DNA from: Acidobacteriota bacterium
GTDB taxonomy: Bacteria; Acidobacteriota; CAIWXX01
Assembly: GCA_040755995.1 (NCBI GenBank)
Contig: JBFMAF010000012.1
Location: 1 to 64,000 of the forward strand
Direction of reading: 5' to 3'
Length of the DNA: 64,000 nucleotides
Shown here: piece by piece, positions 359-47,358 of the stretch
Layout of the letters: each line of letters begins with the position of its first letter
Position numbering within the stretch: position 1 is the first letter of the stretch
The notes under the pieces: model-generated
Seen by the model: only the letters and a program-made list of their open reading frames with translations
Told to the model about the DNA's origin: nothing
Databases searched by the model: none
Position numbers and translations under genes: made by a program

Positions 359-1120
359 TCAGGGGTCGCTCTGCAATCCGAGGAACCGCCGCAGAGCCGC
401 GAACAATGGTGCCGGGCGCACGGAGACGCGCCGGTCGGCAAAGAACAGCCCCCTCTTCCCGTATTTCGCGTTCACTTGCCCATGCCAGGTCACGCTGAAG
501 CCGGCTCGCCCCAAGCCTGCACCAAGGTCTTCAACAGCAAACTCCTCGCAATTCGGGATTCGGACGTGCGGCGCCAGTTGGGCCCGCAGCTCGTGGCATT
601 CGCCGACAATGCGGTCGACGCGCCCGAGCAGCCTGGAGGTGAGAAGAATTGGGAATTCCGCGCCCTCGCAGTCGATCTTGACTAGATCGATGCGGCGCGC
701 ACCACGGTTGCTTGCCGTTTCGACGACCTCGTCGAACGGCACCACATTGACCAGCGGGCCGTCCGTTTGCAGGATCAATGTCCCGCCGCCGGCGTTCGTG
801 ACGTCACTCGATGCCGAGAAATGCAGCGGCGAGGCTGGAATGTCGGACCGCCAGACAGCGCAGTTGGAGAGCTGGACGCGATCACCAAACGGCGCCAGGT
901 TCCGACTCGCACAGGCATAGTTGGAAGGCTCGGGCTCGAAGCCGTACACTCGAGCTGCACCTCGCACGAGCGCCAAATAGCAGAACGTGCCGATGTGCAT
1001 GCCAATGTCGATGACAACCGCTCCAGGCGCGAAGCGGTCCGGCAGTCGGTACTCATTCCGACGCACGACGAGGTCATAGATCTCGTGGTCATTGGTTCCC
1101 GGCCGGAACGAAAACGTCAT
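359..1120 (-). CDS. FkbM family methyltransferase
   Basis: Motifs VIDIGMHIG, YGFEP and IDLVKIDCEGAE. Confidence 0.9.
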   Translation of the reverse strand: MTFSFRPGTNDHEIYDLVVRRNEYRLPDRFAPGAVVIDIGMHIGTFCYLALVRGAARVYGFEPEPSNYACASRNLAPFGDRVQLSNCAVWRSDIPASPLHFSASSDVTNAGGGTLILQTDGPLVNVVPFDEVVETASNRGARRIDLVKIDCEGAEFPILLTSRLLGRVDRIVGECHELRAQLAPHVRIPNCEEFAVEDLGAGLGRAGFSVTWHGQVNAKYGKRGLFFADRRVSVRPAPLFAALRRFLGLQSDP

Positions 1121-1720
1121 TGATCGTCACCTCTCACACTATCACGGCCGTTGACCATGAGAACCCGCTTCTCTGATCGAAGCATGGAGCCGCCCTCCTC
1201 CGGACACAGGAAACCCTTGTCTGATCCCACCTGGAACTCTCGGAAATCCCCGAGGACACTGGAGGGTGTTGGATAGTCGCGCGTCGCGCAGAAAATCACA
1301 CCCAAACTCACGCGGAAAGGTAACAAGTTCGCAACTCGCTGTCAACGAAGCGAATCGATCGCAGCACCTGTTCGTGACGAGGTACGCACACGTGCTCCTG
1401 CTCCGTCTGGCCATTCCGAAGAAGGGGTTCCGCTCCAGTGTCACATGCATGTCGCAGGATTCACCCATGAAGATCAGGTCATACTCCAGCGGAATGTGCC
1501 GGGTTGGCTCCGCGAACCGCGCACAGAAATCCGCCGGCAACACAACATCGTCCTCCAGGATCAGGGCGGAACGCTGCCCTCTCTCGATGACGTTCCTGAA
1601 GATCCGCTCGTGCTTGAGGAACAAGCTGACCTCCTGCGGCGTCAGTGCATCCTGGGTCACCCGCTCCCGGAACAGGCGACACGGCACCTCATCCCAGTCC
1701 GGGGGTGAGATGTTCCATAG
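1117..1720 (-). pseudogene. Degenerate glycosyltransferase family 25
   Basis: The GT25 core is present (EVSLFLKH, ALILEDDV, YDLIFMG, STCAYLV). The normal N-terminus is missing, the ATG after the promoter opens only MEHLTPGLG*, and a possible C-terminus lies in another frame (1117-1326). Confidence 0.6.
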
Positions 1721-1742
1721 ACTGAGCCTGGAACACGTTTGG

Positions 1743-1771
1743 AAGATAGGATTCCCGGCAGGAGTTGTCAA
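1743..1771 (-). promoter_or_regulatory. Sigma70-like promoter
   Basis: TTGACA-17 nt-TATCTT on the minus strand. Confidence 0.5.
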
Positions 1772-1865
1772 GGCTGGCTGCAATCAATCGCCCCATCGCC
1801 ACGCTGGCCTGTGCCCCTGAAGGGGGATGGCACGTCGCGCGCCTTGGGTGATACAATGCGGCTCA

Positions 1866-2576
1866 ATGGGTATCGAGCCAGAACATCGACTGAGGCCCAC
1901 TAGCCTCTATGACACTCTCAGGAGTGCTGCCGGTCTGAGTTCACGGGCTGATCATTTCTGGGCGAGCTTCCGTCCCTGGGCGCTGTTCCGCCGATTCCCC
2001 CGCCGGTATTTCGAGCGCATTTACGTGGAGCCCGACCCCTGGGACTGTCTGACGAGTCCTTACGAGCTCGCCAAGTACGAGAAGACTCTCTCGCTGCTTC
2101 CGCGCGAGCGGTACGGTCGAGTATTGGACGTCGGCTGCGGCATCGGTGTGTTGACCGGGAAGCTGGCTTGGCGGGCCGACTGTCTGGATGCCATCGACAT
2201 CGCGCGGCCTGCGGTGGAACGCGCCCGCCGTCTCTGCCGACACCATCGCCACCTCAGCTTCCGTTCGCCAGATGTTCTGCACTTCTCCGCCCGTCGCCCC
2301 TACGATCTGGTCGTATGCTCGGAAGTCCTTTACTACATGTGGGATCCGGTTTGGGTCCGGCGAGCCGTGAAGCGCAAGCTCGAGAGATTGCTCGCTCCGA
2401 ACGGCCACCTGATCACCTCCTGGGGCGGGTATCGGCTCGTGCAGGACTGGGATGCCGTCTTGCAGCAGGGCGCTCGACTGCGACTGGTGCGCAGCGAAAT
2501 GCTGGACGACCCCGTCCGCCCCTATCGAGTGTCCCTGTTCCAATCTGTGCCGTCTTCCCCGTTGGGTGAGCCGTAA
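1866..2576 (+). CDS. Class I SAM-dependent methyltransferase (NodS-like)
   Basis: N-terminal DPW...SPYELAKY motif, VLDVGCGIG and YDLVVCSEVLYY. The start is placed at ATG 1866, after TGaTACAAT. Confidence 0.85.
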   Translation: MGIEPEHRLRPTSLYDTLRSAAGLSSRADHFWASFRPWALFRRFPRRYFERIYVEPDPWDCLTSPYELAKYEKTLSLLPRERYGRVLDVGCGIGVLTGKLAWRADCLDAIDIARPAVERARRLCRHHRHLSFRSPDVLHFSARRPYDLVVCSEVLYYMWDPVWVRRAVKRKLERLLAPNGHLITSWGGYRLVQDWDAVLQQGARLRLVRSEMLDDPVRPYRVSLFQSVPSSPLGEP

Positions 2577-2584
2577 ACACGCCG

Positions 2585-3685
2585 ATGACGACGGGTGGCA
2601 CCGAAGAACGGATCGATGCCGTCTACTCGTGGGTGGACGGAGAGGACCCTTCCTTCCTCGCTGATTGCCGGCGATGGATCGGCCCGGCGCAAGAGCCGGA
2701 TGCCATCGCGGCCCGGCGTTTTCGTGATAATGGTGAATTGCGGTATTCGCTGCGCTCCATCGAGCGCCACGCGCCGTGGATCGACGGCATTCATTTCGTC
2801 ACCAACGGCCGAATGCCGGAATGGCTCAATACGTCCCATCCGCGCGTCTCCGTCGTCGACCACCGGCAAGTCTTCCCCGATCCTGCCGTTCTGCCCGTCT
2901 TCAACTCCTGTGCCATCGAGCTGAATCTGCACCGGATCCCGGGATTGTCGCGGCGGTTCCTCTATCTGAACGACGATCTCTTCCTGGGCCGCGACCTCAG
3001 CCGCGGCGACTATCTCGTGGGAGATTGCGCGTTTCGCTATTATTTTGAGCCGAACCCGCTACCCATGCGCTCAGGCACGGGCCCTGTCCACGATCGAGCC
3101 TATGCGTACACGAGCGCGGTGCTGAACCGTCTTTCAAAGGGGCGGCGAGTGGAAACGAACAGAGCCGCCTACGTGGTGCCGCGGAGGTACAAGCTGGCAC
3201 CTCCATCGGTCCGCCGCCTCCTGCCGCCTCGCCGGCTGCTTCCGGCGCACGTTCCACAGCTGTACGACCGATGTGTGCTGGAGGAGCTCGAGCGATGGTT
3301 GCCGGTCGAATTCGCCGCCACCCGCGCCCACAGGTTTCGCGCGGCCGATGATCTGGTATTGCGGATCCTCTATGCCTTCTACCTGCTGGAATGCGAGCCC
3401 GCTGGGTGCCGCCTGGAACCGGTGCTCCTGGATTGGGAATCGTCCGACTACCAATTCATAAGCCTGCAAGTTTCGCCCGAAGGAGTCGAAGGCGCTTTCG
3501 CCCGCATGGCTTCGCTCAACCCGCGCTTTCTGTGCGTCAATGACGACCTTGGCGACGTTTTTCCCGATGATCCCGTGCTGGCGCTGTGGCGGCGAGTCCT
3601 GCAGGCTCGTTACCCCGCGCCGTCCTCCTTCGAGAACGTGAAGAGCGCCGGCGCAAGCCTTTCGGCGAATGCGAGTGGCGCGTGA
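2585..3685 (+). CDS. Stealth family protein (putative hexose-1-phosphate transferase)
   Basis: CR1 IDAVYSWVDGEDP; CR2 RFRDNGELRYSLRSI...FNSCAIE...FLYLNDD; CR3 AHVP...HRFR; CR4 FLCVNDD. Confidence 0.92.
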   Translation: MTTGGTEERIDAVYSWVDGEDPSFLADCRRWIGPAQEPDAIAARRFRDNGELRYSLRSIERHAPWIDGIHFVTNGRMPEWLNTSHPRVSVVDHRQVFPDPAVLPVFNSCAIELNLHRIPGLSRRFLYLNDDLFLGRDLSRGDYLVGDCAFRYYFEPNPLPMRSGTGPVHDRAYAYTSAVLNRLSKGRRVETNRAAYVVPRRYKLAPPSVRRLLPPRRLLPAHVPQLYDRCVLEELERWLPVEFAATRAHRFRAADDLVLRILYAFYLLECEPAGCRLEPVLLDWESSDYQFISLQVSPEGVEGAFARMASLNPRFLCVNDDLGDVFPDDPVLALWRRVLQARYPAPSSFENVKSAGASLSANASGA

Positions 3686-4062
3686 GCACTCTGAAGCAAC
3701 GGGCTATCCGCATGTCGCGCATGCTCGCGTGTCGTGGCTTTGCCTGGGCCGGCCTCGGTATGGGATCGACGCTGCTGCGGGCCGCCGCAGAGAACCTGCT
3801 GGCGATTGTCCTGCTCCTTTTCCTGTTCTCCTTCGGCCTGGTCGATCCTTCGCGGATGCCGCGCTGGCTGCCGGATCGCTGCGACGAGCGGCACCCCTGG
3901 GCACAACCCCGGATGGAAGACGCGGCCGCCATGATGCGTCAGGTGGCAGGAGACCGGGCGGCGGCGCGCGCGCGAGCCCGGGCGTGGGTTCCGGCGCTGC
4001 AGCGCGAGTTCTCTTCGCGTGCGGTCGCGGAACGACTTCGACGAGTGCTGAGTGATGGCTGA
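3682..4062 (+). pseudogene. Glycosyltransferase C-terminal remnant
   Basis: WAQPRMEDAAAMMRQV...FSSRAVAERL resembles the C-terminal tail of GT4-type enzymes. The catalytic core is absent. Confidence 0.45.
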
Positions 4063-4957
4063 GACTCCGAACCAGTACCTTTTCGTGTTCGGCCTGAAGA
4101 GGCAGACCGAGCCGTTTCACATCTGTCACTACCTCTGCATCGAATCGTGCTTCCAGGTCAATCGACCCGAACGAATTCTCTTCTACTACCAGCACGAGCC
4201 GTATGGTCGCTACTGGGATCTCGCGAAGCGCCGGCTCACTCTCGTACACGTGCAGCCCGGCCCGGCTTTGGCCGGGTTTCGCTATGGCTGGCGGCACCGC
4301 GGCTGCCGGAAATATCGCTATGCGCACCTTTCCGATTTCATGCGTCTGGAGAAGCTTATCGAGCAGGGCGGCGTGTACGCCGACATCGACACGATCTTCG
4401 TGAACCCGCTGCCCGCAGCCCTGCTCAGAGAGCCGTTCGTCCTCGGCCGCGAGCAGCCCGTCCGCTGCCAGGACACCGGTCTGGTTCGCCCTTCACTTTG
4501 CAACGCTCTGATCGTGTCGCCGCGCGAGGCAGAGTTCGGGCGACGATGGCTCGAAGAGATGCCGCGGGCCTTCAACGGCTCGTGGAGCAATCACTCCACC
4601 TTCCTGCCACAGCGCCTGAGCGAGGAGATCCCGCACGCGATTCATATCGAGCCGAGCCGCAGCTTTTACCCCTGCATGTGGACCGCCGAAGGGATCCGGA
4701 CGATGCTGCAGGGCTGCGACCCGGACACGCGCGGAATTTACAGCATGCACCTGTGGAGCCATCTCTGGTGGTCAAAGCGGCGGCGGGATTTATCCGAGTT
4801 CCACGCCGGATTGCTGACCGAACGTTACATCCGCGAGGTCGACACGACGTACAACCTCATCGCGCGACAGTTCCTGCCGCACGAGCAGGCTATGAAACGG
4901 GATTCGACGAGGGTCCGACTCGCAACGCTTCTGACGTGGGGCTCGGGGAGAAGGTGA
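4052..4957 (+). CDS. Glycosyltransferase with DXD sugar-binding domain (GT32-like)
   Basis: Motifs AHLSDFMRL, GGVYADIDT, LCNA and MHLW. Confidence 0.85.
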   Translation: MMAETPNQYLFVFGLKRQTEPFHICHYLCIESCFQVNRPERILFYYQHEPYGRYWDLAKRRLTLVHVQPGPALAGFRYGWRHRGCRKYRYAHLSDFMRLEKLIEQGGVYADIDTIFVNPLPAALLREPFVLGREQPVRCQDTGLVRPSLCNALIVSPREAEFGRRWLEEMPRAFNGSWSNHSTFLPQRLSEEIPHAIHIEPSRSFYPCMWTAEGIRTMLQGCDPDTRGIYSMHLWSHLWWSKRRRDLSEFHAGLLTERYIREVDTTYNLIARQFLPHEQAMKRDSTRVRLATLLTWGSGRR

Positions 4958-5547
4958 TGCGGCCACAGCTGCTCTACCTTTCGCCGCTGACGCCGGCGCC
5001 ATCGGGGTCGGGCCTGGCCATGCGGGCGTTTCACAACCTGCGGGCGCTCGCCGTGGATCACGACGTGCGGCTGCTGGTCATTCAATACGGACTCCGCGTG
5101 GATTCCGCGGGGATCCACGTGCGGAGCCTGTGTCGGGAAATCGCCGTGCTGAGGCTGTGCGTGCCGGTGGATGCGACGAGGATGGCCATCCAGAGACTGA
5201 TGAGAGCCGGCGGCGCTCGATTCGGACCTGCGCCCCGATGGCCGCTGGAGCTGCGCGGGCTGTCGCGCCGACGGCTGCGAGCTGCCTCACAAGTGTTCCC
5301 CGGCATTCGATTCGACACGATCCATGTCTTCCGGCTCTACCTGGCACCGTACGGTTTCGCCTGCCAATCACGCACGGCTCGAACCGGACAGGCCCCCGTG
5401 CGTCTCCAACTGGATCTCGACGAGATCGAGTCGCGAGCCCGGCGCAGCCTCGGCGATCTCCATCGCGAGCGCGGCTCGTTCCTACGTCGCCCGCGAGCAC
5501 TTCGCCGCGATGCGCGAGGCCGATGTCCCGTCGATGCCCCTTCTTGA
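4957..5547 (+). pseudogene. Truncated GT4 glycosyltransferase (N-terminal part only)
   Basis: MRPQLLYLSPLTPAPSGSGLAMRAFHNLRAL...FDTIHVFRLY...LDLDEIES is GT4-like. The similarity stops near 5470 and the C-terminal Rossmann domain is missing. Confidence 0.65.
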
Positions 5548-6016: not shown

Positions 6017-6289
6017 ATGATGCGGGTCAGCATTCCGGATCAGATCCTGATGCAAGAGCTCGAGGACGAGGTTGTGTTGCTCGACCTGGAGAGCGGGCGA
6101 TATTTCGGGTTGGCGGCCGTGGGAGCCAGGGCTTGGCAGCTTCTGAGCGAGACAGGGGATACGGAAGAGACGTTTGCGAAGCTGGCCGGCGAGTACGCCG
6201 TTGACGAAGCCACACTGCGCCGTGACCTGGATGAGTTTTGGCAACAGCTCCTCGATGCGCGTCTCCTCACGGCGGCACCCAAGACTTAG
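6017..6289 (+). CDS. PqqD family RiPP recognition element (lasso B1)
   Basis: QELEDEVVLLDLESGRYFGL..VGARAWQLL...LAGEYAVD...DL is the PqqD pattern. A GAGGT RBS precedes ATG 6017/6020, so the track's N-terminal extension from 5774 is not part of the gene. Confidence 0.9.
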   Translation: MMRVSIPDQILMQELEDEVVLLDLESGRYFGLAAVGARAWQLLSETGDTEETFAKLAGEYAVDEATLRRDLDEFWQQLLDARLLTAAPKT

Positions 6290-6316
6290 CGACCTGACGC
6301 AGGCAAGTGCCTCCCC

Positions 6317-8221
6317 TTGAGCGCGATATACGGCGAGTTTGTCCGGAGTGGTGATCCGGTTGATCCGGGCGCTCTGGATCGCATGGCAGCAGCGATCCGC
6401 TGGCATGGTACGGATGGCGGCGGCCAATGGTCTTCGCATCAGGTTGGACTCGGGCACCTCCTCCACTGCGTGACGCCGGAATCCCGCTTCGAGCGTCAGC
6501 CGTTGGTCGATGGAAGCGGGCGTTTCGTGATCGCAGCGACCGCAAGGCTGGACAACCGCGCAGAGCTGCTCGATGGGCTTGGACTCGGCTCACCTTCCGA
6601 CCGCCCCCTGACCGATCCCGAGATCATCCTGGCGGCCTATGCCGCATGGGGCGAGGAATGCCCCGCCCGCCTGCTCGGTGATTTCGCTTTTGTTGTCTGG
6701 GACGTCACTGAGAGAAAGCTGGTCTGCGTCCGCGACCAGATCGGCATCGGCCCCTTCTACTACTATCTGAGCGACAGCCGTTTCGTGTTCGCCAGCGATC
6801 TGCGCGCTGTCGCCGCGCACCCAGCAGTGCCGCGTCGTCTGAACGAGAGCGCCGTCGCCCTCCACCTGCGTTACGTGCACTACGTCATGCCTCGCGAGAC
6901 CTTCCTTGCCAACGTGTTCAAGCTGTTGCCGGCACATGTCCTCAGTGTCACAGCGGACGGTGTGCGCGAGCGTGCGTACTGGACACCGGAGTCGGCTCCC
7001 GCGATCCGCCTGCCTGATGAGCCGGCTTACACTGAGCGGATGGGCGAACTGTTGAATGAAGCTATCCGCTGCCGATTGCGCTCCCTCCACCCACTGGGGG
7101 CGCACGTGAGCGGGGGGCTCGATTCCTCGGCCGTTGCCTCCATCGCCGTGTGTCAACTGGGAAAACAGGGCAGGACCCTCGCGGGCTTCAGCTGGCTGTG
7201 GCCGCCGACACCATCCGACGATCCCAATGGACCGGGATACGCTGCCAGGCGCGTTGCCTCGGCACTTAGGATCACACTCGAAGAGGTGAAGATCACTCCT
7301 AGGTCGGTCCGGACGGGACTGGACCAGGACATCAGCCTGGATGGCTACACGGATCTCTGGTATGAGCCACTGGTGCGCGCCGAGGCAAGGGCACGTGACA
7401 TCCGCGTTCTGCTCTCGGGCTATGGAGGCGACGAAGCCGTTTCCTATGACGGCAGGGGCTTCCTGGCCGAGCTGTTGCTCAAGGGCAGATGGCAGCGTCT
7501 GGCAAGGCTGATCGCTGCTCGCAGCCGTGGTGCCCCTCATCCCTGGCGACGTGCCCTGGGGACACTCTACAGCCAGGTATGGCTACAGGCTCTGCCTGCC
7601 TGGGCTCCGCTGGTCAGATCTGGAGCTGATTTGCGCAGGATGGACCGCCTCACCGGCATATCACGCGAGTTTGCCGCCCGCACGAGGACGCTCCAATCGG
7701 GATTGAGGGATAATCGCCGTGGCGATGTCCATGCCAGGCAGGCACATTGCCTGATGAGGGGACATCTCCAGGCGCGCATCGAAGTGTGGTCCACACAGGG
7801 AGCACGCGACGGTATCGAGTATCGCTACCCCCTGCTCGACCGCCGGCTCATCGAATTCTGCCTGGGAGTGCCTGGAGAGCTTTTCTTTGGTACGCAGCAG
7901 GGCCGCCATCTGTTCCGCCAGGCTCTCGCCGATGTCTTGCCGGATGATGTCCGTCTGGCCGAGCTCAAGCTCGAACTGAGGCGGGTCGCACAATACATCG
8001 AGGTGATGGACGCTGCCTGTGCTCGGTGGCTCGGGGCGGCTACCGAAGACGAAGCGTACTGGAAGCAGACGTACGCGCCAGCAGCACGGTATCTTGATCT
8101 CCGCTGGGTAGCTCAACACTGCCGCGATGAGCTGGCTCCGAAAGAGCGACTGTCGCGCATGCTCGGACGAGAGCGCCAGATCCAGGTGCTCGTGATGGCG
8201 CGAGGGAGCACTCAGGGTTAG
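6317..8221 (+). CDS. Lasso peptide isopeptide-forming cyclase (asparagine synthetase-like, C protein)
   Basis: Starts MSAIYG, lacking the catalytic Cys of AsnB. Motifs ARLDNRAEL, GDFAFVVWD, SGGLDSS, LLSGYGGDE and YPLLDRRLIEF. It lies between PqqD and the precursor. Confidence 0.9.
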   Translation: MSAIYGEFVRSGDPVDPGALDRMAAAIRWHGTDGGGQWSSHQVGLGHLLHCVTPESRFERQPLVDGSGRFVIAATARLDNRAELLDGLGLGSPSDRPLTDPEIILAAYAAWGEECPARLLGDFAFVVWDVTERKLVCVRDQIGIGPFYYYLSDSRFVFASDLRAVAAHPAVPRRLNESAVALHLRYVHYVMPRETFLANVFKLLPAHVLSVTADGVRERAYWTPESAPAIRLPDEPAYTERMGELLNEAIRCRLRSLHPLGAHVSGGLDSSAVASIAVCQLGKQGRTLAGFSWLWPPTPSDDPNGPGYAARRVASALRITLEEVKITPRSVRTGLDQDISLDGYTDLWYEPLVRAEARARDIRVLLSGYGGDEAVSYDGRGFLAELLLKGRWQRLARLIAARSRGAPHPWRRALGTLYSQVWLQALPAWAPLVRSGADLRRMDRLTGISREFAARTRTLQSGLRDNRRGDVHARQAHCLMRGHLQARIEVWSTQGARDGIEYRYPLLDRRLIEFCLGVPGELFFGTQQGRHLFRQALADVLPDDVRLAELKLELRRVAQYIEVMDAACARWLGAATEDEAYWKQTYAPAARYLDLRWVAQHCRDELAPKERLSRMLGRERQIQVLVMARGSTQG

Positions 8222-8289
8222 AACGCCTGAGACTATAGAGCATGCTACCGCTGCCCCCGCCCGTCCTGCCTGGCTGCCCGGAATCCGTC

Positions 8290-8318
8290 TTGCTGGGACA
8301 TCTGGCGTGTGCTAGCAT
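8290..8318 (+). promoter_or_regulatory. Putative promoter of the precursor gene
   Basis: TTGCTG-17 nt-TAGCAT with an extended -10 TG, followed by a GGGAGGT RBS before ATG 8356. Confidence 0.4.
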
Positions 8319-8355
8319 GGGCCAAGAGCAAGCCCAAGGGTGAGGGAGGTTGCTG

Positions 8356-8505
8356 ATGGATGAGGAACATTCGTTGAAGGCGGATCCCCCCGTCGAACGT
8401 AAAGCATACTCGAAACCAGAGCTTGTGGAGTACGGCAAGGTCAACATGATGACTCTTGGCGGTACCTACCCCCAAATTGAAGGTGGAATCTACACCTCCG
8501 GCTAA
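8356..8505 (+). CDS. Lasso peptide precursor, 49 aa: MDEEHSLKADPPVERKAYSKPELVEYGKVNMMTL|GGTYPQIEGGIYTSG
   Basis: Translated by hand because it is below the track cutoff. It has the YxxPxLxxxG leader motif, Thr at -2, Gly1, a Glu8 acceptor and a strong RBS, and it directly follows the cyclase. Confidence 0.9.
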   Translation: MDEEHSLKADPPVERKAYSKPELVEYGKVNMMTLGGTYPQIEGGIYTSG

Positions 8506-8566
8506 TCTCGTTCGGCCGCGGTGGGATCGCTCCCGCGCGCAGCGAGAAACCGATGCTCCATGTGAC

Positions 8567-9589
8567 TTGGGTGAGAATACGCCCTTTCTTTACGCCGTCC
8601 ACGGCATAGTGGTATGTAGCAATCGTCGGCTGGATATCTTCGCGCCATTCGATGGCAAGTCCGTGCCGGTGTTGGACATCTGGCTAGGCAACTTGAACGA
8701 GCTCTGCCAACGCCACCCAGAGATAAACTCGCTCGTCCTTCAACATGAGGGCTTCAGGCCGTCACAGGACGTGCTGCCGAGCAAGAACATGTCCCAAGGT
8801 GACGTTTTTCTCAACTGCGCCGGCGGTGAGCATCATCTTGTCGTGGCTGTCCTGTCGGCTACGGGGAATTCCATAGAGGTCGGTTGGCGCTGCGCGCCGG
8901 GTGGTTCGGAAGCAGGCATGGAGGAGGCGGTTGCCGGCTACCTCATGACTAACCTGCTGGGGATGGCCATGCGGCTCTCCGGGCAGATCGTTTTGCATGG
9001 CAATGCCGTCCGTGTCGGCGATCGCGCCGTCATCTGGGCTGGCGACAAGGGTGCCGGGAAGTCCACTCTCGCGGCCGCCTTCTTGAACGCCGGCTACCCG
9101 CTTCTGGCCGACGACCAGGTAGTGATCCGGCCTGTCGGGGATGGATTCATGGTCACTCGCGGCATCCGCCGACTACGGCTGTTCACTGAAGGCGGGCAAA
9201 TTCGGCGCCTCCTGGAAGCCGCCTACCCCTTTCATGAACCGTTCGGCCCGACCATCAAAGGCTATTTCGACGTCGATTGGAATGGCGAGCGGCTCGTCGC
9301 GGATCGGTTGACGCATCTGAGTGCAGTCTATGTCATCCAGCCCCGCGGCGCGGAGATCCGATCGCCCGTCATTGGGACGCCCCGGCCGAGCGCGCAGCTT
9401 CACTTGTTGCTCTCCCATTGCGTTGGCCGAAGGACCTTAGCCCTGAGCGCTGCACAGCAGCGGGCCGAGTTTTACGCGATGGGCAAGATGGTGGGGCGGG
9501 TGCCGGTTCGGTTCCTCCGGATGCCTGACGACCTGGCACGGCTGCCCGAGGCCGTGAGCCTGCTCGTGGCCAGGTGCGGACATGACTGA
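8567..9589 (+). CDS. HPr-kinase-like lasso peptide kinase
   Basis: LHGNAV, Walker A GDKGAGKST and LLADD. The start is uncertain because the track start at 8456 overlaps the precursor. Confidence 0.8.
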   Translation: MGENTPFLYAVHGIVVCSNRRLDIFAPFDGKSVPVLDIWLGNLNELCQRHPEINSLVLQHEGFRPSQDVLPSKNMSQGDVFLNCAGGEHHLVVAVLSATGNSIEVGWRCAPGGSEAGMEEAVAGYLMTNLLGMAMRLSGQIVLHGNAVRVGDRAVIWAGDKGAGKSTLAAAFLNAGYPLLADDQVVIRPVGDGFMVTRGIRRLRLFTEGGQIRRLLEAAYPFHEPFGPTIKGYFDVDWNGERLVADRLTHLSAVYVIQPRGAEIRSPVIGTPRPSAQLHLLLSHCVGRRTLALSAAQQRAEFYAMGKMVGRVPVRFLRMPDDLARLPEAVSLLVARCGHD

Positions 9590-10697
9590 GCTCGGGCACC
9601 CACGCGTGAGCGTGGTCACTACCACCCGCAACGGCGCACGTTTTCTCTCGGCGGCGATAAAGAGCGTCCTGGCTCAATCCTTCGAGGACTTCGAATATGT
9701 CGTCGTCGACAACGCATCGACCGACGACTCAGCCGAGATTGTTTCCGACATGGCGCGCCGCGACCGGCGCGTCAAGCTGATCAGGGGAAGCGTTGACTTG
9801 GGACCCGCTGGCGGCCTGAACCGAGCCATCGGGTTTGTCCGCGGCGAGTACGTGGCAGTGCTCGACTCCGATGATCTGGCCCTGCCGGAACGCATCGGCC
9901 GTCAGGTCGACTTCCTGGACAGGCACATCCAAGTCGGGGCCGTAGGCGCGCAAGTGCGGATCATCGACTCCGCGAGCGCTCCGATCGGACGATGGCAATA
10001 TCCTACTCATCCGGCCGGGGCCCGATGGGAGCTGCTCTTCGGCGCCAGCCTTCTCCACTCGGCGTCCATGTACCGTCATTCGCTTCTGGCACAGCTCGGG
10101 GGGTATTCCGAGCGACACCCGTTCGTGTGCGACTACGAGCAGCTTGTGCGTCTGGCCGATGTGAGTCAAGTGGTGAACCTGGATGAAGAACTGGCCTGCT
10201 ACAGGCGAAGCTCAACGCAGCTCAGCGTCATACACCCGAGGCGACAACAAGGCGAGGCCATGCTGCTGCGATATGCCATCCAACGCCGCTGGCTCGATCT
10301 GCGGCCCGACCTCGGAGTCTTCGCCAAGCTATTCCAATGGGGATGCGGGACGGCGCCCGCTACCACGGCGGAGGCGACAGCGGCAATGGAAATGCTGGAG
10401 CTGCTTTATGATCGCTATCGCCATGTCACACCGCTTTCGGATGGCGACCGCGCGGCGGTCGACAGCCGTTGTGCACGCCGGTGGTTGCGGATGGCGCATC
10501 ACGCGTATGACACGCTTCGTGAGGCCAGCCGCCATTGCTGGCAGCAAGCCCACCGGCTCGATCCGCAGCTGACGCGAACGTCGAGTGCCCATGCTATCCT
10601 GCATAAGCGCCGGGGGGCGCCCGACTCAGCAGTGAATCTGCCGCCGCCGGATCATCACGAGCCCCGCGACAGGACGGCACAGTTCGCGATTTCCTGA
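9582..10697 (+). CDS. Glycosyltransferase family 2
   Basis: Motifs VSVV, VVDNASTD, GEYVAVLDSDD and CDY. Its start overlaps the kinase stop. Confidence 0.9.
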   Translation: MTELGHPRVSVVTTTRNGARFLSAAIKSVLAQSFEDFEYVVVDNASTDDSAEIVSDMARRDRRVKLIRGSVDLGPAGGLNRAIGFVRGEYVAVLDSDDLALPERIGRQVDFLDRHIQVGAVGAQVRIIDSASAPIGRWQYPTHPAGARWELLFGASLLHSASMYRHSLLAQLGGYSERHPFVCDYEQLVRLADVSQVVNLDEELACYRRSSTQLSVIHPRRQQGEAMLLRYAIQRRWLDLRPDLGVFAKLFQWGCGTAPATTAEATAAMEMLELLYDRYRHVTPLSDGDRAAVDSRCARRWLRMAHHAYDTLREASRHCWQQAHRLDPQLTRTSSAHAILHKRRGAPDSAVNLPPPDHHEPRDRTAQFAIS

Positions 10698-10734
10698 TCT
10701 TCCCGCAGGTCATGGCCTCCGGGCAGGTGAGAAG

Positions 10735-11922
10735 ATGGATCACGTAAAGAGAATCGCCGTGCTGAATCCATATCTTCCATTGCTGGGCGGAGGCGAGAAA
10801 TACATGGGCCATATGTGCCAATTCTTGGAAGGCCATTACCCGGACGCTCGCATAGATATCCTCATTGACGATCACGATCATACGAGGGTCGGCGACGATG
10901 GCATCGACGACCTGAACAAGAGATTCGGCCTCGACCTGAAGAGGACGACCACCAGAAGGATCAAGCTTGAAGAGGAGCTATCAGAAAGGGAGTGGTTGAA
11001 GAACCAGTGCGTCGTCGCGAGGGTCACCGGAGAATACGACATCTTCATCAACAACATGTTTCTAAGCAGACACGCTGGTAAAGCCAAGAAGAATGTCTAC
11101 ATATGTATGTTTCCGCCCAAGCCCTTGGCCCGAGAGATTCATGACGAGACCGCGATCGCCAAGACGACATCACATATCATCGATCGTATATTCGTGAGAT
11201 GCTATGACAAGGTCGTAACTATATCCAATTTTGCGGACCGTTGGACGAAGGAGTACTTGAAAGGAATACGCGATAGCGTTGTGGTCTATCCTCCGGGTCT
11301 GTCTGAAAGAGGCATGCAAGACAACTACGAGGAGAACAGGAAGGAAAACAGAATCCTCGGGGTTGGACGGTTCTTCGTTGGAGCACACAACAAGAAGCAG
11401 CTGGAGATGGTGCGGCTCTATCTGAGCAGCAGAGGGAAGCTGAAGGAGTACGAGCTGCATTTGGTGGGGGCATTGGCCGGCAACAAGAGGGACATTGCTT
11501 ACGTGGACAAGATCAAGGCGATGGTCAAGGACGAGAAGGTGTTTCTGCACGTCAACGCGCCTTTCGGTCTTCTGACGGACATGTACAGGAAAGCGAAGAT
11601 ACTCTGGCACGCCACAGGTTTCAACGAAGACGCGAACAGAACGCCGGAGAAGATGGAGCACTTTGGCATTGCAACAGTGGAGGCAATGGGGTATGGCGCA
11701 GTCCCCGTCGTAATAGATGGAGGTGCTCAGCCGGAGATTGTGCAAGATGGAGAGAGCGGCTTTCTGTGGGGTAGTGAGTCAGATTGGATTGGTCAGACTA
11801 AGCGACTGATCCAGGATCAAGCGCTCAGAGTCAGGCTGGCGAAAGCTGCAAGCTCGAGATCACGGGCGTTTTCAGTAGAGAGATTCTATGAGAGCCTGAG
11901 GGGCGTATTTGACACAATGTGA
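10735..11922 (+). CDS. Glycosyltransferase family 4
   Basis: Motifs GGGEKY, VGRF...KKQ and EHFGIATVEAMGYG. Confidence 0.9.
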   Translation: MDHVKRIAVLNPYLPLLGGGEKYMGHMCQFLEGHYPDARIDILIDDHDHTRVGDDGIDDLNKRFGLDLKRTTTRRIKLEEELSEREWLKNQCVVARVTGEYDIFINNMFLSRHAGKAKKNVYICMFPPKPLAREIHDETAIAKTTSHIIDRIFVRCYDKVVTISNFADRWTKEYLKGIRDSVVVYPPGLSERGMQDNYEENRKENRILGVGRFFVGAHNKKQLEMVRLYLSSRGKLKEYELHLVGALAGNKRDIAYVDKIKAMVKDEKVFLHVNAPFGLLTDMYRKAKILWHATGFNEDANRTPEKMEHFGIATVEAMGYGAVPVVIDGGAQPEIVQDGESGFLWGSESDWIGQTKRLIQDQALRVRLAKAASSRSRAFSVERFYESLRGVFDTM

Positions 11923-11981
11923 AGACAGGTCTCCTCGTAGTGGCGATCTTCGGTCCGCTCGAGGATGGCCAGTGCGGTTTC

Positions 11982-13913
11982 CTACGGGAACGCCAGGGAT
12001 CTATGAGCTCTCGAGACGGCTCTCCGGAACATAGAGGGTGGGTGCCTGCTCCTTTCGATCTCTATGGAATTGGAGAGACTGCATGCGTGGACACAGGCGC
12101 AGTTCAGAATCCTCCTCCTGTGCCCAGCCGCCTCCTCTGAATTCCATGCGATCGAGAGGTCGTAATTCCAGTTCTGAAGATTGCCAAACGGCTTCAGCTG
12201 TTCGCAGACGGCGACTGAACCATCGTTGTACACTATGGCCCCCTCGTACCCTGCATAACATCTTATCTGCCTTTTCCGGGAGCGCAGAGTGCTCAGTATC
12301 AGGTCCATGAGCCGCTTGCTGTGGGCTTGAAAGTATCTCGGATACTTCTCAGAAAGGGCGGAAACAACAGCTTCAATCTCATCAACGGTGAGACTATTGT
12401 CTGTCTTGGGGCCGTAATCCTCCACTTCAAGGTCCTTGTCGAGATTGAAGCTGCTGAATGAGTTTCCTCTTACCGGTGTCAGGAGGCTCGGGAAGCCGTT
12501 CGACAGCAAGAAACCAACCAAAGCTGCTATCTCATCTATGTTGTCTTTCATGAGTACGATATTTGCTGCAAGACTGAGATTGCGGTATTTCAACGACAGG
12601 CATCTGGCGATTCTGCATGACTCGACCGCGTTCTTGAAGGCAGATGGGACGCCTCTGATCTTGTTGTGGGTTTCTTCGAGTCCGTCCAAGGAGATGGAAA
12701 TGTGGATGTGTTTTATGGAGCGGCAGATTGCGGGCTCCAAAGCCGCTATTCTCTCCGGCAGGAATCCGTTCGTCGTGATGGCGATGCTGGCAATCTTCTC
12801 GTGGGAGGCGAGGCGACCGAGGAGCGTGGTCAAGTCGTCCCTCATGAGCGTTTCCCCCCCAGTCAGAATGATGTCCGAGGGCTTGCTCAGAGAATCGGCT
12901 ATCTTCAGTATGTTGCTCTCCCGCATGTCCGCTGTGCCGTTGTTCAGATTCCTCAAGAAACAGTGCCGGCAATTTGAGTTGCATCTCGAGGTAATGAAGA
13001 AGGTTATGTACCTGGGGGTCGCCACATGGTTCTTCTTGAATAGTCGCTCTTCGACGCTCCGCCTTATTCTTGACTTGACCGGTATCTCCAACATGAACAG
13101 ACAAAGAGCACGCAAGAGCTGGACCGGATTCTTCCTGGCGAGTACCATGTCCATCCAGCTCTTGAATGCGCCTTCAAGCGACAGCCCGGGATCAGCACGC
13201 TCTCTTCTCTTCTTCGCGTATGAAACCGGCAGCGCGTAATAGTCCCTCAAGCTTCTCCCTTTGGAAAGAGAATACAGGCAGTTGAGATGCCCACCGAGGA
13301 TCTCCGCGGCCGGCAGCGATGAGTACTTGGTGAAATGGTAGACGACGGCCTTGCTGGTGATAATGGCTCTGAGGCCTCTGTCTTTCATTCTGTTTATCAG
13401 GTCAAGCTCGTCATAGAAATGTGAGTAGACAAGCCACGGGTCAAAGGAGAAGCGTCGAAAGGCATCCTTCCTGAACGCCATGTTGCAGCCGCTGATTCTT
13501 CCGGGCGCGTAAACGTTCCTGCTGCGCCCGATGTAGGACACTCCCCCAACGGCCATCACACTCTTGTCTGACACGAGAGGGCGCGAGATCTCGTTGAGCC
13601 ATGACCTCTCAACTACGCAGTCGTCGTCAACAAAAGCGACTATCTCTCCTTTCGAGTGCTCGAGCCCGACGTTGTACAACTGGGCGGTAGACTTCCTGCG
13701 CTTCACAGCAAGAGCCCTCACCTTCCCGTCCGCGAGATAGTTCCTGGAAAGGAATTCGGTTGTGCCGTCTTCAGAGTTGTCGTCTACAACAATGACTTCG
13801 TAGTTTTCGTGGGTTGAGTCCAGAATCGAGTCTATGCATTTGTCGAGATATTCTTTTCTGTTTCTCGTCCTAACAACAACGGACACGAATGGACTGGCAA
13901 GTGTCTTGTTCAT
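11982..13913 (-). CDS. GT2 glycosyltransferase fused to a radical SAM/SPASM-type domain
   Basis: The N-terminus has VSVVV, VVDDNSED, AFVDDDC and GCNMAFRK. The C-terminus has CNSNCRHC (CxxxCxxC), TGGE, ITTNG, SLDG, CYAG...DGSVAVCE and CACVHAC. Confidence 0.88.
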   Translation of the reverse strand: MNKTLASPFVSVVVRTRNRKEYLDKCIDSILDSTHENYEVIVVDDNSEDGTTEFLSRNYLADGKVRALAVKRRKSTAQLYNVGLEHSKGEIVAFVDDDCVVERSWLNEISRPLVSDKSVMAVGGVSYIGRSRNVYAPGRISGCNMAFRKDAFRRFSFDPWLVYSHFYDELDLINRMKDRGLRAIITSKAVVYHFTKYSSLPAAEILGGHLNCLYSLSKGRSLRDYYALPVSYAKKRRERADPGLSLEGAFKSWMDMVLARKNPVQLLRALCLFMLEIPVKSRIRRSVEERLFKKNHVATPRYITFFITSRCNSNCRHCFLRNLNNGTADMRESNILKIADSLSKPSDIILTGGETLMRDDLTTLLGRLASHEKIASIAITTNGFLPERIAALEPAICRSIKHIHISISLDGLEETHNKIRGVPSAFKNAVESCRIARCLSLKYRNLSLAANIVLMKDNIDEIAALVGFLLSNGFPSLLTPVRGNSFSSFNLDKDLEVEDYGPKTDNSLTVDEIEAVVSALSEKYPRYFQAHSKRLMDLILSTLRSRKRQIRCYAGYEGAIVYNDGSVAVCEQLKPFGNLQNWNYDLSIAWNSEEAAGHRRRILNCACVHACSLSNSIEIERSRHPPSMFRRAVSRAHRSLAFP

Positions 13914-14152
13914 TTACGCGAGAGATAGTAATTCCAGGGGTTCTTCATTGACTTCACATGCGAAAGCATCGCACGCAGTCTCTTCCGTGAAAACGGCCAG
14001 GCCATTGCGCCTCGCTGGTAGGATTGTGCCCGTAGCATGCCGACGAGTATACTCGGCCCCTGGAAATTAGGCCACCGAAAGACGGGAAGCCACGAGGGCA
14101 ATACTCGGACTCGTGGACGCATGGGATGCGAAGGGGGTAGTAAGAACCGGCA

Positions 14153-15424
14153 ATGCCCAATCCTCACATGCGGCCGCTAGTCGTCCATGGAGTGAGCAAG
14201 ACAGAGGAATTGCTCCTGGATTGTCTGAAGAGAAACCCACAGTGCCCGGAGCGGGCGGCGACAGACTCCTTGCGTGCGTCGGATTGGCATCAGCTGCTTG
14301 ACTTGGCCACGGCGCAGCGAGTCCCGGCTTTGCTCTATCATCGTTTGAAGGCAAAGCAGCTGGATCATCTGCTGCCGGAAGAGGTCAAGACTGCATTCCG
14401 AAAAGCCCACCGGGAAACCACCATGCGAAACATGTCCTTCTACGGTGAGCTTCGGCGCCTGGGGGCGGCGCTGCGCGAGGACCGAGTCCCGCTGCTGGTC
14501 TTGAAAGGTATGTACCTGGCGCAGGAGGTCTATGGAAATATCGGCGTGCGAGAAATGAACGATATCGACGCCCTGGCTCAACTACACCACTTGGGCAGGA
14601 TCGTTGAGAAGCTCGACAGCCTTGGCTACGCTCCAGAACGGCCCTTCTCCATCGAGAACATCCTACAAGTCTGGTCGCATCTTCCCCGCTTCATCAACCC
14701 GGGTAGGGCCGGAATTGAGATTCACTGGAACCTGACCGTGCCTACGGAGACATACACCATCGATCCAGCCGAGCTGTGGCAACGCGCCGTGCAAGTGGAG
14801 CTGGCGGGAGGTGGATTTCGCGCGCTTTGCCCCGAGGACATGCTCCTTCATCTCTGCCTGCATTCCGCGTACCGACACCAGTTCGCATTCGGCCTTCGTC
14901 CTTCATGTGACATCGCCGAATTGCTGGCCCACTCGGGCGGCGACATTCGCTGGAAATGTGTTCTGGATCGCGCCAAGCGATGGGGTTGCCGCCGTGGCGT
15001 CTACGTGGCACTGCGGCTGGCGAAAGAGATTGTCGACGCCGATGTTCCGGACCATGTCCTGACACGACTGCGTCCGGCGGAATTTGACGAGGCCATTGCA
15101 GAAACTGCGATGGCTCTGGCTCTTACAGACGCGCGTCTTGCGAGCACAGTGCCGGTGCCAATCGCGAACCTGCTAGGAACAAAGGGCACGTGGGCGCTGG
15201 TCAAGCTTCTCGCAAATCGCGTGTTCCTATCCAAGAAGCTCATGGCGACCGTTTATCCAGCAGCGCCGGATTCTCTCAAGATCTACTGGTACTATCCAAT
15301 CCGCGTGGTCGATCTCCTCACGCGCCACGGCCGGACGATGCGCAAGGTGCGGGACAACGAACCCGAATTGATCCGGCTGGCTGAGCGGAAGCGCACGATC
15401 GATCGGTTTCTGCTTGGGGGCTGA
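14153..15424 (+). CDS. Nucleotidyltransferase family protein (NTP_transf_5-like)
   Basis: LKGMYLA..Y...REMNDID, EIHW, LLHLCLH and DIA. The true start may be GTG 14192. Confidence 0.85.
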   Translation: MPNPHMRPLVVHGVSKTEELLLDCLKRNPQCPERAATDSLRASDWHQLLDLATAQRVPALLYHRLKAKQLDHLLPEEVKTAFRKAHRETTMRNMSFYGELRRLGAALREDRVPLLVLKGMYLAQEVYGNIGVREMNDIDALAQLHHLGRIVEKLDSLGYAPERPFSIENILQVWSHLPRFINPGRAGIEIHWNLTVPTETYTIDPAELWQRAVQVELAGGGFRALCPEDMLLHLCLHSAYRHQFAFGLRPSCDIAELLAHSGGDIRWKCVLDRAKRWGCRRGVYVALRLAKEIVDADVPDHVLTRLRPAEFDEAIAETAMALALTDARLASTVPVPIANLLGTKGTWALVKLLANRVFLSKKLMATVYPAAPDSLKIYWYYPIRVVDLLTRHGRTMRKVRDNEPELIRLAERKRTIDRFLLGG

Positions 15425-15459
15425 TCATCAACTCTTGTGCCTGAACACAAGGCCTGCAG

Positions 15460-15954
15460 TCAGAGATCTGGACGCCGGACGGCCCCCCGTCCGAAAAACT
15501 CGGCGACTACCGCGAATTGCTCATGGCCGGCGGCGCCGGTGAGAATGTCGTCGCCACACCGGAGCCATGCGTGCGCGGTGAGCATCTCAGGATTCGTTCC
15601 ATCCTTGGCCACGCCAAGGCACAAGGTCCCGGTGATGCGGCGTCGCTTGAGCATCCATTGTGCTGCCACGGCCTGGGGCAGACACGCTCCGACCCATGGC
15701 ATGTTGTTTGCGGCCGAGCGGACGGCGTCACCGACTTCTCGAGCTCGAAGCAGGTCATAGGCGTCGATCTGCGACTCCGGATCATTCATCTGCACGCCTA
15801 GCCAGACGGACAGCCGTCTGAACGGCAGGACAAGAAGCGCGAGGCGCGCAAGGCCCAACAGCACGCACGCTTCGACCAGCAGCACGCGCTCGGCTCGTGT
15901 GCGACGGCGCCACCTGGCGGGTGCGCCGCACAAGGACTTCAACAGGCCGGCCAT
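15460..15954 (-). CDS. Lasso peptide B2 leader peptidase (transglutaminase-like)
   Basis: ACLPQAVAAQWML...LGV...AHAWL...D, which carries the catalytic Cys and His motifs. Confidence 0.9.
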   Translation of the reverse strand: MAGLLKSLCGAPARWRRRTRAERVLLVEACVLLGLARLALLVLPFRRLSVWLGVQMNDPESQIDAYDLLRAREVGDAVRSAANNMPWVGACLPQAVAAQWMLKRRRITGTLCLGVAKDGTNPEMLTAHAWLRCGDDILTGAAGHEQFAVVAEFFGRGAVRRPDL

Positions 15955-22333: not shown

Positions 22334-23089
22334 ATGGAGTGCGCTCTCGAGTTGAGCGGCGTGACCAAGCGATTCGGGGCTACCGTCGCTGTCGATGGTC
22401 TCGCCCTTCGGCTCGAACCTGGGGTCTTCCTCGGCTTGCTGGGGAGAAACGGAGCCGGGAAGACCACCACGATCAGCATGTGCACAGGGCTGCTCAAGCC
22501 CAGCTCCGGATCGATCCGCGTCCTCGACATCGACGTCGTGGCGAACCCCTTGGCGGTCAAACGACGAATAGGCGTCATGGCGCAGGAGGAGGGCTTTCTC
22601 GACTATCTCACAGGGTCGCAGTACCTCCACTTCGTCGGCCGGGTCTACGGTCTCGACGATGAGGAGACCAAGAGACGGTCAGAGGAGCTGTTCGACACCT
22701 TGGAGCTGGCACCCCAACCTGGAACTCTGGTTCGGGAATACAGTTACGGTATGAAGAAGAAACTGGCACTCTCGGCCGCCCTGATTCATGGTCCTCAGAT
22801 GTTGTTTCTTGATGAACCGTTTGAAGGCATCGATCCGGTGACGAGCCGCACGATCAAGGACATCCTGCTTGGCCTGCATCGGAAGGGCGTCACCGTGCTC
22901 ATGAGCTCGCACATACTCGAAGTGGTGGAGAGGCTTTGCGCGCAGGTCGCTATCATCGACAAGGGCCGGCTGATGGGGTGCGGCACGATGGATCAGATGC
23001 GCGAACGCCACGGCGAGGCGGTGAGCCTCGAGCAGCTGTTCGTGGATCTCATGGGAGGCGCGAAGAGAGGTGAGCTCTCTTGGCTCTGA
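22334..23089 (+). CDS. ABC transporter ATP-binding protein
   Basis: Motifs GRNGAGKTT, YSYGMKKK, LDEP and SSH. Confidence 0.95.
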   Translation: MECALELSGVTKRFGATVAVDGLALRLEPGVFLGLLGRNGAGKTTTISMCTGLLKPSSGSIRVLDIDVVANPLAVKRRIGVMAQEEGFLDYLTGSQYLHFVGRVYGLDDEETKRRSEELFDTLELAPQPGTLVREYSYGMKKKLALSAALIHGPQMLFLDEPFEGIDPVTSRTIKDILLGLHRKGVTVLMSSHILEVVERLCAQVAIIDKGRLMGCGTMDQMRERHGEAVSLEQLFVDLMGGAKRGELSWL

Positions 23090-47310: not shown

Positions 47311-47358
47311 GCCTGCCTCGGGAACTGCCGACTCTGGCCGTGGCGACCTACCCTCATC

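Follow-up and report, generated by a model that had tools for sequence, protein, structure and literature searches.

The stretch of DNA analysed here, hereafter the window, comprises positions 1 to 64,000 (64,000 nt, forward strand) of contig JBFMAF010000012.1 from an Acidobacteriota bacterium (assembly GCA_040755995.1) and carries a putative lasso-peptide cluster in which the gene of a peptide kinase (K) overlaps that of a family-2 glycosyltransferase (GT2a). An earlier, sequence-only reading had seen nine lasso and glycosyltransferase (GT) genes within about 10 kb, among them a complete core of A, B1, B2 and C. Both points were borne out: all nine genes lie in open frames between 6017 and 15954, each at the place assigned to it, and the core is supported by family matches (PF05402, NF033535, PF13471/NF033537) and by a canonical precursor. 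The genes, including one that fuses a GT2 to a radical S-adenosylmethionine (SAM) domain (GT2-rSAM), are as follows (GC, guanine-plus-cytosine content; RiPP, peptide that is ribosomally synthesized and then post-translationally modified):

B1, 6017..6289, plus strand: RiPP recognition element (RRE), PqqD family; PF05402, 62.7 bits, E 4e-17
C, 6317..8221, plus strand: lasso cyclase, asparagine-synthetase-like; best NCBIfam match NF033535, 396.6 bits (cut-off 525)
A, 8356..8505, plus strand: precursor, 49 aa; leader YxxPxL...G...T(-2), 15-aa core at 8458-8502
K, about 8567..9589, plus strand: HprK-like peptide kinase; PF07475, 30.2 bits (cut-off 33.3), weak TIGR04352 match
GT2a, 9582..10697, plus strand: kinase-coupled family-2 glycosyltransferase; PF00535, 105 bits; 8-nt overlap with K
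GT4, 10735..11922, plus strand: family-4 glycosyltransferase; PF00534, E-x7-E motif, GC 0.518
GT2-rSAM, 11982..13913, minus strand: GT2-radical SAM fusion; PF00535, PF04055 and weak SPASM matches, CxxxCxxC motif, GC 0.527
N, 14153..15424, plus strand: PF14907 nucleotidyltransferase, PsmN-like; 218.9 bits
B2, 15460..15954, minus strand: leader peptidase, transglutaminase-like; PF13471, and NF033537 at 100.1 bits (cut-off 33)

For the cyclase, the asparagine synthase model TIGR01536 scored only 215 bits against the 396.6 of the lasso family; the protein has no N-terminal Cys, and an SGGLDS motif is present. The translation of B2, the sole PF13471 match in its genome, contains both the Cys and the His motif. 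We presume that the usual labels apply to these motifs (SGGLDS in C, Cys/His in B2) and to DxD in GT2a, E-x7-E in GT4 and CxxxCxxC in the radical SAM domain. The kinase and N motifs follow published work (PMC9266682 and PMC6993621, respectively; here and below, papers are cited from parts of their text). K, whose start codon is uncertain (8456 or 8567), retains the His, Walker-A Lys and Asp-Asp of that set. N has a DxD motif (D-I-D) and is likened to PsmN through this motif and the PF14907 family. Its best fetched relatives (31-32% identity) lie in two lasso loci (L249 and L167), and a second PF14907 gene is found on another contig of the same genome.

The closest characterised system is that of pseudomycoidin (psmCAKB1B2ND, Bacillus pseudomycoides). 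This peptide first receives a phosphate and then, in dependence on PsmN, one or two hexoses, the paper leaving undecided whether PsmN or a host GT transfers the hexose (PMC6993621). Both clusters have A, B1, B2, C, an HprK-type kinase and a nucleotidyltransferase with a DxD motif, which in psm belongs to an uncharacterised family, but in pseudomycoidin the Ser is C-terminal, an ABC exporter belongs to the cluster and a recognisable GT is missing, whereas the window has a penultimate Ser, no linked exporter and a GT2 overlapping the kinase. Similarly, the kinases of paeninodin (pade), ThcoK and SyanK have the same His-Lys-Asp-Asp set and act on the linear precursor, but with a strict C-terminal Ser acceptor and, in the parts cited, no glycosylation reported (PMC9266682), unlike the window. 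The assignment to the paeninodin/pseudomycoidin type thus stands for the kinase motif and the PF14907 gene and falls for the C-terminal Ser and the linked exporter. Judged by its genes, the locus is a real lasso cluster that would work like pseudomycoidin's save in those two respects.

No ABC exporter is encoded in 6017-15954, and of the 20 open reading frames (ORFs) that were scanned in 1-27 kb only one matched a transporter, the DrrA-like ABC gene at 22334-23089, 6.4 kb from B2 and separated from the cluster by unrelated genes; the contig begins at window position 1, which bounds the upstream view. The genes do not form one operon, because GT2-rSAM and B2 are on the minus strand and the others on the plus strand. 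Scans of the locus for promoters, terminators and repeats stayed at chance level.

Lasso cores start with Gly, Ser, Ala or Cys, carry Asp or Glu at position 7-9 and have a bulky residue in the tail. In the window, the precursor start is most likely ATG 8356, since GGAGG precedes it by 6 nt and two homologues, P0181 (69%) and P0183 (65%), begin at the matching Met. The leader has the YxxPxL motif and Thr at -2, in line with the lasso pattern Y/WxxPxL plus Thr(-2), and the core likewise agrees with the general pattern, with Gly1 at its start, Glu8 as its acidic residue and Tyr12 in its tail, which ends Tyr12-Thr13-Ser14-Gly15. Glu8 also occurs in P0181, and Glu9 in both P0183 and the precursor of a second genome, G826. 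The C-terminal Ser of paeninodin and pseudomycoidin is absent here: the precursor ends in Thr-Ser-Gly. A genome-wide leader scan revealed no second convincing precursor. A 363-aa protein, P0187, contains about six repeats of 56 residues, and in each of them one stretch is 63% like residues 33-45 of the precursor; the likeness may be chance or a misread repeat array.

What is new at this locus, as far as its sequence tells, is a dedicated, kinase-coupled GT2 with a matching precursor tail. GT2a (371 aa) matches GT2 only in Pfam and apparently is a single-domain, soluble protein; it is not a davasin-type membrane polysaccharide-deacetylase/GT2 fusion. It has 32 homologues at E <= 1e-40, mostly near full length and 47-74% identical, among which Asp184 is invariant, and a DxD motif is seen in its translation. 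The predicted fold is confident (pLDDT, predicted local distance difference test, 89), with WrtF, a Leptospira GT, SpsA, chondroitin and heparosan synthases, RmlT and TarS as the nearest solved relatives, and an ESM Atlas search returned generic GT2 clusters. The polyprenyl-phosphate GTs ArnC and DPMS ranked last in the sequence search. From the chemistry of GT2 enzymes, we infer that GT2a would act on a hydroxyl, be it of Thr, Ser or a first sugar, and not on the phosphate.

GT2a was found directly behind K in all four subfamily members with DNA (score > 340 bits; next best 240), each accompanied by a lasso-type precursor and an RRE, and in one case K and GT2a are fused, while none of 21 weaker GT2 loci had K inside flanks of roughly 1.5 kb. 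The three members outside the window (345-596 bits) come from two genomes, G776 and G826, detected in a 401-genome sample of the phylum recorded as Chloroflexi plus 167 genomes of the order of G776. At one end of contig C29 of G776, K (39%) and GT2a (57%) overlap by 8 nt as in the window, and C43 of the same genome carries B1 (60%), C (57%) and A (54%) at its end. Contig C31 (L245, 9814-12725) has B1, A and then K-GT2a in one 695-codon frame; no cyclase was present in the 12.9 kb examined, the locus being near a contig end. The fourth locus, G826:C55, shows a divergent cyclase followed by B1-A-K-GT2a. B1 and the precursor thus precede K on the same contig in three of the four, the C43-C29 case being the exception. 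In the fetched DNA, none of these three Chloroflexota-side loci contains N, GT4, radical SAM or B2 genes within about 10 kb of GT2a; PF14907 genes occur elsewhere in both genomes, and two B2 genes elsewhere in G776. The scanned neighbours at both G776 loci are housekeeping genes. As further observations on G776, the closest fetched cluster (L251 16731-16841 and L244 16768-19839) has a precursor whose first acidic residue is at position 10, and a TylF-type methyltransferase gene is convergent to GT2a, with another adjoining a B2-C pair in L253.

The GT2a profile detected no true member in 400 genomes of the window's own phylum (best 226 bits), in five individually chosen genomes or in five genomes of the order of G401, and on plasmids one partial match (38%). 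Lasso genes are also accompanied by other GT2 genes, of more distant kinship, in L249 and L250. One of these, the same-phylum locus L249 (G197:C43, 100-15900), comprises PqqD, two radical SAM genes, GNAT, N, GT2-K-B1-C, an epimerase, an ABC transporter and B2, with no precursor matching the pattern used.

The precursors of the GT2a group share a tail. Tyr-x(0-3)-[Thr/Ser]-Ser-x(0-3)-end occurs in six of six, namely the four GT2a-linked precursors and the two nearest homologues, P0181 and P0183, and in none of 38 precursor calls (one of which looks spurious) from other kinase-plus-cyclase loci. We regard it as a predicted acceptor motif, and as a lead.

Further evidence for linkage came from protein tables, which list each protein's longest contig. 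A contig of exactly the same size as that of a GT2a homologue was listed for 10 of 46 close cyclase homologues (19 cluster representatives, 44-79% identical, plus 27 proteins belonging to 10 of their clusters) versus 2 of 54 distant ones (representatives only, without cluster members), and for 8 of 16 versus 0 of 20 when contigs were restricted to >= 10 kb; jittered lengths gave a mean of 0.35 matches. Thiohalocapsa marina (locus around KAA6187409-411) is one of the 10 cases: its cyclase and GT2a differ in accession number by 2 in one assembly and by 3 in another, and this spacing, with order read from accession numbers, fits A and K lying between them. A cyclase scan of genome contigs returned 24 loci (26-44% identity), none of the close clade and so without information on GT2a linkage. 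A tree of 66 kinases joins the window's K with the G776 kinase as its sister (support 100/93), and not with any kinase of its own phylum. This suggests, short of proof, that the B1-C-A-K-GT2a cassette moved between lineages as a unit. A second HprK-like kinase gene of the window's genome, followed by a PqqD-like gene, lies at a contig start (G000:C50, 1-1514), with no precursor beside it that matches the pattern used.

To gauge how widespread such gene combinations are, we surveyed the phylum. B2 was matched in 88 of 401 genomes, and 74 loci were compared (73 of the 97 B2 matches from outside the window's genome, the omitted ones being mostly at contig starts or the weakest, and one from another search). 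With home-made profiles, 50 of the 74 had a cyclase-like gene along with B2, and within about 10 kb these 50 contained K in 43 cases, N in 31, GT2 or GT4 in 19, all of K, N and a GT in 16, and radical SAM in none; in the locus of G197, two radical SAM genes are 12-14 kb from B2. GT2 or GT4 genes occur in 12% of random 20-kb windows of the window's own genome, a loose comparison, and kin are not independent. Given these counts, lasso genes with a kinase, N and some GT are a common combination in this phylum.

The three GTs do not form one set, GT2a standing apart from GT4 and GT2-rSAM. The latter two have a joint GC of 0.525, against 0.61-0.66 for B1, C, K, GT2a and B2, 0.59 for N and a mean of 0.627 over the genome. 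Among 4745 genome windows of 3.2 kb, a single one was equally low or lower, and the tetranucleotide distance from the genome profile was reached by 0.13% of random windows. This deviating composition points to GT4 and GT2-rSAM as a probable foreign insertion, likely of later date, that separates GT2a from N, and the peptide probably does not need them. N and B2 lie 3.5-4.8 kb past GT2a, behind this insert. We found no convincing repeat flanking the insert. Homologues of GT4 (30-38%) were present in 12 of 250 same-phylum genomes, never on a contig with a B2 match, and none of eight fetched loci contained B1, B2, C or N; there was one weak kinase hit 5 kb off, and neighbours included other GTs and sugar-nucleotide enzymes (our GT4 profile was built from 36 of the 45 GT4 matches of the window's genome). 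A role of GT4 in the peptide pathway is doubtful. The GT2-rSAM fusion is rare, with five other proteins at E <= 1e-30 among 8000 scored. In 300 same-phylum genomes, nearly all matches were to the radical SAM half alone (24-35% identity), a solved-structure search of that half gave generic radical SAM matches only, and a scan of metagenome contigs revealed no close relative among the best 80 of 187 loci. On four metagenome contigs of 1.8-6.8 kb (L084-L087), both halves of the fusion have counterparts in separate, adjoining GT2 and radical SAM genes, without lasso genes; by its sequence, this split pair is a recurring gene pair of the glycan-locus kind. Conservation of the GTs together with the lasso genes, the check named in the sequence-only reading, held for GT2a only and largely broke down for GT4 and GT2-rSAM.

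The account that we favour, at about even confidence, is that the locus directs a 15-residue lasso peptide with a Gly1-Glu8 ring, phosphorylated by K at Ser14 and glycosylated by GT2a, next to a foreign insert of GT4 and GT2-rSAM that it does not need. Its chemical steps, sugar, site and function are predictions from the genes, motifs, gene order, co-conservation, single fusion and composition described above. By analogy with paeninodin and pseudomycoidin, B1 would bind the YxxPxL leader and K would phosphorylate Ser14 on the linear precursor. B2 would cleave after Thr(-2)-Leu(-1), and C would close Gly1-Glu8 around the threaded tail, with Tyr12 as the likely plug. N may then put a hexose on the phosphate, as PsmN does, and GT2a may add a sugar to a hydroxyl in that tail, on Thr13 or on this first hexose. 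As to function, the guess in print for pseudomycoidin is that its modification acts as a bulky lock behind which the tail stays threaded. For the predicted products, the calculated MH+ is 1481.69 for the cyclic core, 1561.66 with phosphate, 1643.74 with hexose, 1723.71 with phosphate and hexose, and 1764.74 with phosphate and HexNAc.

Several observations weigh against this account. Characterised lasso kinases act on a C-terminal Ser (PMC9266682), whereas Ser14 is penultimate and the corresponding Ser is terminal only in the homologue P0181. The tail motif was set post hoc, and P0181 and P0183 were found through similarity to the query. The four GT2a loci derive from three genomes, the join of C43 and C29 in G776 is inferred from contig ends without overlap, and the K-GT2a fusion, known from one assembly, could be an error. 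The four GT2a-linked kinases fall into two supported pairs and form a single clade in just 54% of bootstrap trees. N is absent in cis from all three Chloroflexota-side loci, so that a partnership of N and GT2a is not conserved. The fold neighbours of GT2a build glycans, and none is a peptide GT. Contigs of the same size imply a shared contig by inference only, and not adjacency. Finally, P0008, a GT2a homologue (74%), and P0042, which matches residues 145-626 of GT2-rSAM (74%), are each listed with a contig of 39,971 bp, a length for which no cyclase is listed. One relative thus appears to keep GT2a and GT2-rSAM together, and the insert would then probably be as old as the split from that relative and have been retained since.

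This last observation favours an unlikely alternative, the best placed of the competitors, in which the whole block cooperates: on the phosphorylated lasso peptide, N, GT2a, GT4 and GT2-rSAM would together assemble an oligosaccharide that contains a sugar modified by radical SAM chemistry. The 74% identities of P0008 and P0042 are near the 79% of the nearest cyclase, GT4 shares the strand of GT2a and starts 37 nt after it, the insert separates GT2a from N, and every frame is intact. Such cooperation is hard to reconcile with the foreign composition of GT4 and GT2-rSAM, the opposite strand of the latter, GT4 homologues that avoid B2 contigs and lasso genes or N, the lack of radical SAM genes within about 10 kb of B2 in the 50 same-phylum loci, and split GT2 and radical SAM pairs that exist without lasso genes. 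The large multi-GT glycan or polysaccharide tether envisaged in the sequence-only reading has little support, as the three Chloroflexota-side K-GT2a loci lie among housekeeping genes and, in the DNA fetched, have neither N nor GT4 nor radical SAM genes. A bolder variant, which we consider quite unlikely, holds that a mobile RRE-precursor-kinase-GT2 cassette, spread over at least three groups (this genome, Chloroflexota and Thiohalocapsa), defines a so far undescribed RiPP branch with phosphorylation-primed glycosylation of a Tyr..Thr-Ser tail, and that the captured GT4 and GT2-rSAM extend and radical-modify the glycan here. If true, the product would be the first lasso peptide whose oligosaccharide is built by enzymes and chemically altered.

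It is rather improbable that the window holds an ordinary phosphorylated, psm-like lasso cluster with all three GTs, GT2a included, serving cell-surface glycans as mere neighbours. GT2a does resemble glycan GT2s, EpsE-type ones among them, the 5.5 kb upstream carry FkbM, GT25-like, NodS-like, Stealth and DXD-type GT genes, and 19 of the 50 same-phylum lasso loci are near a GT2 or GT4, an association also published, with 36% of rumen lasso clusters co-occurring with GTs (PMC7533575) and paeninodin-like clusters often found in capsular loci of Bacilli, where neighbouring GTs were suggested to modify the peptides (PMC13381572). What speaks against mere neighbourhood is the position of GT2a behind K in four of four loci, with one fusion, three of these loci lying among housekeeping genes with no other GT within about 10 kb of GT2a in the fetched DNA.

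Slightly further down, and doubtful, we place the idea that the conserved unit of RRE, precursor, kinase and GT2a makes a linear phospho-glycopeptide, cyclisation being optional or lapsed. It would suit the cyclase-free stretch around the fused K-GT2a of G776, near a contig end as it is, the acidic residue at position 10 of the C43 precursor and the lack of B2 in cis in all three Chloroflexota-side loci. Linear polyphosphorylated peptides (LPP) of Bacillota do exist, and they share an RRE, an HprK kinase and an NTP transferase in GT-rich loci with the window (PMC13381572), but they have a SipW-like signal peptidase and an MsbA-like exporter, neither of which was found among the ORFs scanned, and no cyclase of their own, whereas the window has a cyclase and B2. 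Intact B1, B2 and C, the canonical Gly1/Glu8/Thr(-2) precursor, the acidic residues at position 8 or 9 in P0181, P0183 and the G826 precursor, and the two B2 genes elsewhere in G776 all argue for a ring.

The proposal, raised in part in the sequence-only reading, that the phosphorylated lasso peptide is a primer or anchor for, or is joined to, a surface polysaccharide is highly improbable: adjoining glycan genes include a Stealth-family sugar-phosphate transferase and capsular surroundings are known for paeninodin-like clusters, but neither a polysaccharide flippase nor a polymerase is among the 20 ORFs scanned in 1-27 kb (the closest flippase gene lies at 45.8-47.3 kb), the Stealth, GT25-like, NodS-like and DXD-type GT genes were unmatched in an early subset of fetched loci, and the K-GT2a pairs elsewhere sit among housekeeping genes, without glycan genes.

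Returning to the favoured account of a phosphorylated and GT2a-glycosylated lasso peptide, its general setting is already published: lasso clusters near GTs and a GT2-glycosylated lasso peptide are both described (PMC7533575, PMC13381572, PMC6993621, PMC11912497), and one cyanobacterial cluster with a kinase and a recognisable GT is mentioned as untested (PMC6993621). Davasins of Streptomyces davaonensis are glycosylated at Ser by the membrane GT2 IgtG, a cluster-encoded GT2 acting on a lasso-peptide Ser (PMC11912497); unlike the single-domain, kinase-tied GT2a, IgtG is a membrane protein that joins a deacetylase to the GT2 and has four predicted helices, and the igt cluster has no kinase listed. 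The parts of PMC13381572 covered here contain no kinase-coupled GT2 subfamily (its Supplementary Data 2 is outside this scope), and the available parts of PMC9576775, PMC12710340 and PMC13352647 no kinase-GT2 lasso system. In the literature searched, which covered neither most subscription papers nor supplements, we found no description of this GT2 subfamily, the K-GT2a fusion or the sub-terminal Ser motif. We regard the kinase-coupled GT2 as a variant in tailoring, and the system as belonging to no new class. Few RiPPs are glycosylated, and the locus offers a cluster-encoded GT2 coupled to a kinase, to which come a natural fusion of the two in a relative and an acceptor motif that is predicted; six or seven genes would suffice to test a relay of kinase and then GT on a lasso peptide, and the locus could show whether lasso kinases accept a non-terminal Ser.

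The surroundings of the cluster yielded some minor observations. The upstream glycan-type block (359-5547) has the GC of the host; its FkbM and NodS-like genes encode methyltransferases, and its Stealth protein matches all four conserved regions of the family. The frame at 4954-5547, seemingly truncated, matches a section of a longer GT protein that contig C37 encodes (39%). Among the genes of this block, FkbM alone was matched in the early subset of fetched loci, once. A further group, at 44900-49107, consists of a GT2, a polysaccharide flippase and a GT4, 29 kb downstream of B2 and adjoining a sulfatase gene.

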